UHGV virus genome: UHGV-1706157
Length of the DNA: 17,319 nt
Direction: 5' to 3' (one strand)
DNA from: a virus
A program made the translations under genes and the position numbers. Positions 16,054 to 16,642 of the stretch are shown one piece after another. Positions within the stretch are counted from its first letter, which is position 1. Each line of letters starts with the position of its first letter. Below the pieces are notes generated by a model that worked only from the letters and a program-made list of their open reading frames with translations, was not told the DNA's origin and made no database searches.

Positions 16054-16476
16054 ATGTCATTCTTTTCTACATTAAAAACAGCTTTGTCTTTGAAGGAGAA
16101 ACTTGCTGCTACTGGTGTTCTTGTTCTGATTTGCGCACTTGTTGGTGCTGGGTTTGCGTGGGAACGTCATCAGCTAAAGCAAGCCATGGAGAAAATTGGC
16201 AGTCTTGATCAGGCTGTTAAGGAACGTGATAAGTCAATAATGGATCTTAACCAGACCATTGAGACGATGAACAAAGCAGAGCAACATTTTCACAGCCAGG
16301 AAGTGAAAAATGAATCAGAACAAGCCAAGTATGCTGACAGGCAAATGGAACGAAAAGCTGAAGTTCAGAAACAACTTGTTGCGGCGGGTAATGTTCGCCA
16401 GCGTATTCCTGCTGACACTCAGCGGTTGCTCCGGGAGTCGATCAGCGAATTTAACGCCGACGCCGACAAAGGTTAA
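16054..16476 (+). CDS. Rz-like inner-membrane spanin (i-spanin)
   Basis: 140 aa from ATG 16054 (AGGAGG SD). N-terminal TM helix (ATGVLVLICALVGAGFAW), coiled-coil periplasmic region, and C-terminal LVAAGNVRQRIPADTQRL resembling the lambda Rz segment VAAGRRRLHIKA as recalled. A lipoprotein gene is embedded in its 3' end. Confidence 0.6.
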   Translation: MSFFSTLKTALSLKEKLAATGVLVLICALVGAGFAWERHQLKQAMEKIGSLDQAVKERDKSIMDLNQTIETMNKAEQHFHSQEVKNESEQAKYADRQMERKAEVQKQLVAAGNVRQRIPADTQRLLRESISEFNADADKG

Positions 16477-16642
16477 CCACCCTGCCCCAAAAAGTGCATT
16501 TATGTGCAGGATGCCAGAGTTTAGCAGTGAATATTTTGATGATCTGCCAGCGTATATCCTCGATACAGAAACGATGCTGATGGGGATTAACAGGAAGAAT
16601 CGCAACGTTAATGATTACAACCGCGCTATCAGCGGTAACTAA
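16310..16642 (+). CDS. Rz1-like outer-membrane lipoprotein spanin (o-spanin), overlapping the i-spanin gene in another frame
   Basis: Lipobox L-S-G-C preceded by a hydrophobic core and an RR n-region (RRVMFASVFLLTLSGC); mature region begins Pro-rich (TPTPTKVNHPAP). Start ambiguous: ATG 16310 (GGAAG SD), ATG 16331, TTG 16370/16373 or ATG 16391. Confidence 0.5.
   Translation: MNQNKPSMLTGKWNEKLKFRNNLLRRVMFASVFLLTLSGCSGSRSANLTPTPTKVNHPAPKSAFMCRMPEFSSEYFDDLPAYILDTETMLMGINRKNRNVNDYNRAISGN

Follow-up and report, generated by a model that had tools for sequence, protein, structure and literature searches.

A probable two-component spanin pair, ppfA/mlp, downstream of the tail-tip genes of a P1-like phage-plasmid

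The viral DNA analysed here, a stretch of 17,319 nucleotides (nt) from UHGV virus genome UHGV-1706157 (the window), carries on its plus strand two overlapping genes, ppfA and mlp, that very probably constitute the two-component spanin pair of a P1-like phage-plasmid. The same pair (P1_gp064 and P1_gp063) occupies the same locus in P1 and P7, between upfB and upfA beside oriR, with 97.6-98% DNA identity, and Summer et al. (2007) and Kongari et al. (2018, Table S1) catalogue it among overlapped two-component spanins as the 'P1' family. An initial annotation of the window had proposed an overlapped Rz/Rz1-type spanin pair at 16054-16642, and these coordinates proved exact. Compared with P1, nothing of substance differs: each protein carries a single replacement (PpfA I45M, Mlp W23L), of which W23L is synonymous in ppfA and makes a second TTG in the n-region of Mlp. 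The features of the locus are listed below, with protein lengths in amino acids (aa); the two diverged lineages used for comparison were Cronobacter phage JK004 and Salmonella plasmid p21-SA00706.

16043-16048, plus strand: AGGAGG, Shine-Dalgarno sequence of ppfA (from the sequence; kept in JK004 and the Salmonella plasmid)
16054-16476, plus strand: ppfA, ATG 16054 to TAA 16476, probable i-spanin, type II inner-membrane protein, 140 aa (translation, P1/P7 identity, phrog_89, Kongari 2018 Table S1)
16102-16158, plus strand: region coding for the predicted transmembrane helix of PpfA, residues 17-35 (hydropathy; helical in the AlphaFold2 model)
16298-16303, plus strand: AGGAAG, Shine-Dalgarno sequence 6 nt 5′ of the mlp ATG (from the sequence)
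16310-16642, plus strand: mlp, ATG 16310 to TAA 16642, probable o-spanin, outer-membrane lipoprotein precursor, 110 aa, in the +1 frame relative to ppfA (translation, PHROGs, P2 LysC, Kongari 2018 Table S1)
16418-16429, plus strand: lipobox L-S-G-C of Mlp, residues 37-40, with Cys40 as the predicted lipidation site (regular-expression match, conservation, LipoP in Kongari 2018)

The strongest hydrophobic stretch of PpfA comprises residues 17-35 (LAATGVLVLICALVGAGFA), where the Kyte-Doolittle mean over 19 residues reaches its maximum of 2.35, and a hydropathy scan of the protein found no second hydrophobic segment. The periplasmic part has 104 residues, 36% of them charged and none of them Cys. 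In a single-sequence AlphaFold2 model (mean pLDDT, the predicted local distance difference test score, of 81), which treats PpfA as a single chain so that an oligomeric coiled coil lies outside its scope, residues 4-116 form one helix and residues 120-138 another, with a break at residues 117-119 (R-I-P). PpfA has the single N-terminal transmembrane domain and the bulk in the periplasm by which i-spanins are recognised (Summer 2007; Kongari 2018), and its periplasmic domain is modelled as mainly α-helical or coiled-coil, as those authors expect of this class. A PHROGs profile labelled 'Rz-like spanin' (phrog_89) matches residues 21-139 at 1.2e-25. Kongari 2018 (Table S1) describes P1 gp064 as an overlapped i-spanin of 140 aa, with an N-terminus plus membrane domain of 36 residues, 104 periplasmic residues and no periplasmic Cys ('one in TMD', the transmembrane domain). 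We conclude that PpfA is, as predicted from its sequence, a type II inner-membrane protein with a periplasmic domain of ∼100 residues consisting of two helices joined at an R-I-P hinge, which agrees with the type II membrane coiled-coil protein first proposed for this frame.

Mlp is the lipobox protein that had been noticed in the other frame. Its predicted mature form has 71 aa, begins CSGS and contains one further Cys. Position +2 holds Ser and not an Asp retention residue, as is required of an o-spanin, and the established +2 rule predicts that Mlp is delivered to the outer membrane. The mature part had been called Pro-rich; with only 6 Pro in 71 aa, 4 of them within the first 25 residues (TPTPTKVNHPAP), this holds as a small cluster that is modest but real. 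Two 'Rz-like spanin' profiles match Mlp, phrog_30284 (2.6e-77, residues 1-110) and phrog_456 (2.8e-5), so that both members of the pair have significant full-length profile matches in PHROGs. In Kongari 2018 (Table S1), gp063 is an overlapped o-spanin of 110 aa, 71 of them mature, with a 39-residue signal, the lipobox TLSG/C and one periplasmic Cys. Across all six frames of the window only two lipoprotein-type signals were found, Mlp being one of them.

The two genes overlap by 167 nt and mlp runs 166 nt past the ppfA stop, an arrangement that defines the 'overlapped' class of spanin genes. A tblastn search of plasmids was dominated by P1-like plasmids of E. coli and Salmonella, about 650 of them and nearly identical; the only usefully diverged relatives were the p21-SA00706 lineage and phage JK004. 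A search of genome contigs with PpfA returned only near-identical P1-like loci. Mlp is 100% identical in several Punavirus records, and its family is narrow, since a large protein search gave 28 clusters, all from P1-like elements of Enterobacterales and mostly truncated gene calls, with no extra lineages. PpfA is ∼60% identical in both diverged lineages and Mlp is 64% identical to its JK004 counterpart. In the part of mlp that lies 3′ of the ppfA stop and codes for Mlp only, substitutions at codon positions 1/2/3 numbered 7/4/23, 8/5/26 and 6/3/17 in the three lineage pairs. The most conserved DNA of the locus codes in one frame for the PpfA C-terminus (PADTQRLLRESISEFNADA) and in the other for the Mlp segment that runs from the hydrophobic core through the lipobox to the mature N-terminus; this doubly coding stretch is 84-88% identical, compared with 57-64% for the part coding for PpfA only when the window is set against JK004 and the Salmonella plasmid. 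The lipobox reads LTLSGC, LTLSAC and LTLNGC in the three lineages, and the periplasmic Cys of Mlp, in FMCRMPEF, is kept in all three. Comparison with the two diverged lineages thus shows that ppfA and mlp are both real genes, and both frames are under selection.

The prototype of overlapped spanins is the LysB/LysC pair of phage P2, which has the same architecture and similar sizes, LysB and PpfA having 141 and 140 aa and LysC and Mlp 96 and 110 aa. BLASTP aligned P2 LysC residues 1-67 with Mlp residues 24-90 at 37% identity over 68 residues (E 1e-7), leaving Mlp with 23 extra N-terminal residues, and this match makes Mlp a distant LysC homologue. It is not a member of the equivalog, as the NCBIfam LysC model (NF038368) scored 14.7 against a cut-off of 27 and the LysB model (TIGR03495) 19 bits against 92.75. 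A model of P2 LysB gave a weak match to PpfA (E 1.3e-3). Rz and Rz1 of lambda, the spanin complex that has been characterised by experiment, have the same two topologies: one is a type II inner-membrane protein whose periplasmic domain is helical, the other an outer-membrane lipoprotein whose mature part is Pro-rich and which has a periplasmic Cys. Presumably the two systems also share their mechanism, fusion of the membranes once the wall has been degraded. The arrangements differ, in that Rz1 is wholly embedded in Rz and the lambda genes follow S and R, whereas ppfA and mlp merely overlap. Sequence-family membership with lambda Rz/Rz1 was rejected for want of a Pfam match or a convincing BLASTP match (the match to Rz1, E 0.005, covered the signal and Pro region only), and the 'Rz-like C-terminal motif' that had been seen in PpfA is correspondingly weak. 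Searches of PDB sequences gave no informative matches.

The initial annotation had also noted that several in-frame starts make the o-spanin start ambiguous. This ambiguity is real and was already visible in Kongari 2018, whose notes on gp063 read 'Too long signal sequence' and 'LipoP server finds cleavage site at 39th position'. In all three lineages mlp has an upstream ATG with a ribosome-binding site 6-9 nt before it: AGGAAG lies 6 nt upstream in the window, and in JK004 and the Salmonella plasmid the ATG stands 9 nt after CAGGAGG, offset by one codon relative to that of the window. Because this ATG is present despite its offset, the start appears to be maintained and not simply inherited, and it is the only start with a ribosome-binding site that is kept across the three lineages. 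The internal Met codons of the window, Met8 and Met28, are not conserved, and no ribosome-binding site was found in the sequence ahead of the internal start candidates.

We consider it unlikely that Mlp, while a true o-spanin, starts instead near Leu24 (TTG 16379), which would give a ∼17-residue signal, M-RRVMFASVFLLTLSG/C, and leave the upstream ATG either unused or the start of a second, longer isoform. Met1 of P2 LysC aligns with Mlp Leu24. The window and P1 have TTG at this codon and the Salmonella lineage has ATG; JK004, however, has AGG, which is not a start. Two further points count against the upstream ATG. The 39-residue signal peptide is atypical in length, and substitutions in the n-region track the ppfA frame and not the mlp frame, so that the amino acids of the long n-region are not visibly constrained beyond being open and basic, a pattern compatible with a downstream start. 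On balance, the conservation of ATG 16310 suggests that mlp is probably translated from this codon, with an unusually long 39-residue signal peptide. Mlp may also be made from two starts, ATG 16310 and TTG 16379, giving long-signal and short-signal precursors. Many public P1-like records omit mlp or call a short 3′ open reading frame of 44-65 aa that lacks the signal peptide, examples being 'Rz1' of MH422554 (46 aa), gene_24 of JK004 (44 aa) and WP_157701176 (52 aa).

Several observations weigh against a spanin function for the pair. BLASTP found nothing significant between PpfA and LysB, and the i-spanin appears to have diverged past pairwise detection. Likewise, the BLASTP match of PpfA to lambda Rz was not significant (E 0.26), and no Rz or Rz1 family was reported by Pfam even at E up to 1. 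Lambda Rz has periplasmic cysteines and PpfA has none, so any covalent dimerisation would run through the single conserved Cys of Mlp. The spanin function of ppfA/mlp is described as experimentally unverified in PMC9025707 (Bednarek et al., 2022), and in a genome-wide CRISPR interference (CRISPRi) screen knock-down of ppfA and mlp gave efficiencies of plating of 0.19-1.3 and both were scored non-essential. Plating without spanins is expected under laboratory conditions; the CRISPRi result gives no positive support either.

An alternative reading is that the pair is an envelope system with a role other than fusing membranes at lysis. It might, for example, modulate the timing of lysis, which is how P2 lysB/lysC were originally annotated, or be a lipoprotein and its anchor that serve the plasmid prophage by surface exclusion or envelope remodelling. 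Besides the dispensability for plaque formation and the unverified function, the setting would suit this explanation, as the genes lie after tail-tip genes and beside oriR and the partition genes with no holin or endolysin adjoining, and the original P1 note reads 'possibly involved in regulation of lysis (by homology)'. However, every topology requirement of a two-component spanin is present and conserved, Mlp is homologous to LysC, an annotated spanin, and expression of the pair (see below) is of the late and not the lysogenic type, its level at 10 min being far below that of parA, parB and repA. We therefore regard a role other than membrane fusion as quite improbable. That the mlp frame is a chance open frame yielding no protein has a negligible probability and is effectively refuted, since, although the +1 frame over the 55 overlapping codons stayed open in 28% of synonymous recodings of ppfA and many gene callers skip mlp or call a short 3′ frame, an open frame with a lipobox arose in only 13 of 5000 recodings (0.26%), the 3′ non-overlapping part has a strong third-position bias, the lipobox, mature N-terminus and Cys are conserved at ∼64% protein identity, and BLASTP matches Mlp to LysC at E 1e-7.

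If ppfA/mlp is a spanin pair, it would be expected to act as lambda Rz/Rz1 and P2 LysB/LysC do; for the lambda mechanism we follow the work of Berry (2008, 2012) and Rajaure (2015) as it is cited in PMC9025707. By this analogy, Mlp would be exported, lipidated at Cys40 and Lol-sorted to the inner leaflet of the outer membrane, and the C-terminal regions of PpfA and Mlp would bind each other across the periplasm. The resulting complex would be restrained by the peptidoglycan mesh until Lyz acts. The complexes would collapse when LydA, the holin, has fired and Lyz, the endolysin, has broken down the wall; the inner and outer membranes would then fuse, completing lysis.

The features that flank the pair are listed here.

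14933-15217, plus strand: upfC, PAAR spike tip (P1 annotation; phrog_281, PAAR)
15169-16014, plus strand: upfB, baseplate tripod (P1 annotation)
16654-17046, plus strand: upfA, Gp49-family protein and last gene of the cluster (P1 annotation; phrog_1453; 'Gp49 family protein' in RefSeq plasmid records)
17060-17090, plus strand: intrinsic terminator-like hairpin, AACCGGC...GCCGGTT followed by a T run, which closes the cluster just before oriR (terminator scan)

UpfC and UpfB have been identified as the PAAR spike tip and tripod of the baseplate by cryo-electron microscopy (PMC12810830, 2026). Little space separates the five genes upfC-upfB-ppfA-mlp-upfA, neighbours either overlapping or standing 11-39 nt apart, and the terminator scan found no terminator-like site on their strand before 17060. 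Thus, the spanin genes ride at the 3′ end of a compact tail-tip gene cluster. The claim that no holin or endolysin lies in the window was borne out by the annotation of P1 and its relatives and by a PHROGs scan of the open reading frames absent from P1. On the P1 map, ppfA/mlp are at 63.4-63.9 kb. The endolysin cluster lyz-lydD-lydE, which follows the late promoter LPlyz, occupies 20.0-20.9 kb, and lydC-lydA-lydB occupies 30.4-31.5 kb; in the latter, LPdar comes after lydC and immediately before lydA. The pair is therefore 32-43 kb from the holins and endolysin, whereas in P2 lysB/lysC lie inside the cassette Y-K-lysA-lysB-lysC. PMC9025707 places ppfA/mlp in 'yet another unlinked operon'. The same paper labels ppfA the o-spanin and mlp the i-spanin; the membrane helix in PpfA, the lipobox in Mlp and Kongari's table show that these labels are swapped.

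The separation of the pair from the lysis genes raises the question of when it is expressed. Published RNA sequencing (RNA-seq) values for P1vir in a wild-type host (log fold change; supplementary table of PMC8201110) were as follows.

upfC: 4.86 at 10 min, 10.63 at 30 min
upfB: 4.12 at 10 min, 11.07 at 30 min
ppfA: 5.57 at 10 min, 11.25 at 30 min
mlp: 4.15 at 10 min, 10.53 at 30 min
upfA: 5.21 at 10 min, 11.24 at 30 min
lyz: 6.05 at 10 min, 11.35 at 30 min
lydA: 5.21 at 10 min, 11.77 at 30 min
lydB: 3.37 at 10 min, 11.01 at 30 min

When genes were divided into early and late sets (our own grouping of the published numbers), the late set (15 genes) had a mean of 4.4 at 10 min and the early set a mean of 8.7; the divergent early genes uhr, hrdC and dmt stood at 8.6-9.4 at this time. 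The ppfA/mlp pair belongs to the late class and, though physically unlinked from lyz and lydA, is not temporally separate from them. It had been suggested that the spanins are regulated separately from the rest of the lysis machinery; they do form a separate transcription unit, but one with the same late kinetics as lyz and lydA. These common kinetics indicate that timing is coupled by a shared late programme and not by gene linkage, a programme that probably acts through the Lpa activator.

We searched with the late-promoter layout AAGTGACTT-N4-TAnAAT, in which a 9-bp box and a -10 hexamer stand 4 nt apart, and a weight matrix built from the 8 late promoters annotated in NC_005856, which recovered LP26 and LPpmgL at 1364-1390 in the window. 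Two candidates were found upstream of the cluster and of the spanin genes, with elements at the homologous positions in both diverged lineages.

16016-16034, plus strand: candidate late promoter 5′ of ppfA, AAAGGACTT-CATT-GATAAT, score 10.6, in the 39-nt upfB/ppfA gap
JK004, 5′ of ppfA: AAATGACCT-GGCG-GAAAAT, score 11.6
Salmonella plasmid, 5′ of ppfA: ATATGACCT-GTCA-GAAAAT, score 7.0
14882-14900, plus strand: candidate late promoter 5′ of upfC, AAATAACCT-AAGT-TAAAAT, score 10.5, 32 nt before upfC
JK004, 5′ of upfC: GAATAACAA-GGGG-TAGCAT, score 6.2
Salmonella plasmid, 5′ of upfC: TAATGACAA-GACT-TACAAT, score 14.3

The boxes are conserved between lineages and the spacers variable, and the upfC elements lie 29-32 nt before the start codon. 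The candidate at 16016-16034 begins 2 nt past the upfB stop and ends 19 nt before the ppfA ATG, a spacing that is likewise 19 nt for LPmat and mat. Neither candidate is annotated in NC_005856, which has only weak sigma-70 promoters there. One of these, P1ppfA, has a poor -10 element in the window (CACAGT, 16007-16012), and a scan for the sigma-70 consensus found no plus-strand promoter upstream of upfC or ppfA, its sole plus-strand match being inside mlp (16587-16615). The background of the matrix tells against the candidates, since 69 kb of P1 DNA contains 23 non-training matches scoring at least 9.5 and the candidates score no better; each also deviates at one position that is invariant in the known set. 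True late promoters scored between 2 and 19 when left out of the matrix in turn. It is thus possible, if somewhat doubtful, that one or both of these sites (14882-14900 and 16016-16034) are late promoters, so far unannotated, through which Lpa switches on the spanin genes.

A further and fairly strong late-promoter-like match, AAGTGACTG-GTGA-TAACCT (3069-3087, plus strand, score 15.1), was found on the coding strand where gene 25 meets gene 7, a short way into gene 7, and is present in P1 too without annotation there. Between the divergent genes uhr and upfC lies a C1 repressor operator (ATTGCTCTAATAAATAT, 14836-14852, minus strand; Odmt/Op68 in P1) that is kept in JK004 and the Salmonella plasmid.

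The window as a whole aligns to P1-like phage-plasmids of the genus Punavirus. MH422554, MH445380 and MH445381 match positions 48-17095 at 99.5% identity, and identity to reference P1 is 98.6% over 92% of the window's length. Gene order is that of P1 in reversed orientation, as outlined here together with the tRNA genes.

First part of the window: pmgM, pmgL, then the tail and baseplate genes 26-25-7-24-6-5 (P1 annotation)
Middle of the window: dbn, ban, three tRNAs, a variable cargo segment, then dmt, hrdC, uhr
End of the window, plus strand: upfC-upfB-ppfA-mlp-upfA, then oriR with a DnaA box, a GATC cluster and the first 19-bp RepA iterons
8859-8934, minus strand: tRNA gene with CAT anticodon, trnI of P1
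10739-10814, minus strand: tRNA gene Thr-TGT, trnT of P1
10817-10892, minus strand: tRNA gene Asn-GTT, trnA of P1

In the MH422554 group, the closest relatives of the backbone, the match ends at 17095 and a RepFIB replicon follows instead of the P1/P7-type oriR present at 17095-17274, with its GATC cluster and 19-bp RepA iterons (GATGTGTGCTGGAGGGAAA). An MH422554-type backbone joined to a P1/P7-type oriR makes the element a mosaic at the replicon junction. The cargo segment has two minus-strand genes that are not in reference P1, which has tciA, tciB and tciC in the corresponding region: one at 8962-9789 for a 275-aa SPFH-domain protein with its own lipoprotein signal MKKTLISAAIILGSLCLTGC (phrog_200, 'lipoprotein'), and after it one at 9770-10006 for a small membrane protein (phrog_1130). 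The ends of the window, 1-48 and 17271-17319, are inverted copies of one adapter, CGAGAT-GACGTCGA-GTCTCGTGGGCTCGG-AGATGTGTATAAGAGACAG at the start and its reverse complement at the end, which we take to be the Illumina Nextera i7 adapter. Homology to phage DNA begins at 48 and stops at 17274, and these terminal copies are untrimmed library sequence, not biology.

The literature already records the pair, the overlap of its genes, their distance from the lysis genes and the over-long signal peptide, so that as a discovery the locus carries little weight. It does illustrate that spanins can be recognised correctly from raw sequence by a reader without tools. Many automatic annotations of P1-like plasmids still miss or shorten mlp. 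Recognition of Mlp as a distant homologue of P2 LysC is an addition of this analysis, and its only new leads are the late-class expression, which was taken from published values, the late-promoter-like boxes shared between lineages, and what the comparison of lineages indicates about where mlp starts. Together, the RNA-seq values and the conserved boxes suggest a simple answer to how an unlinked spanin pair is timed; if the candidate promoters are genuine, P1 would couple its scattered lysis functions purely by a shared activator.

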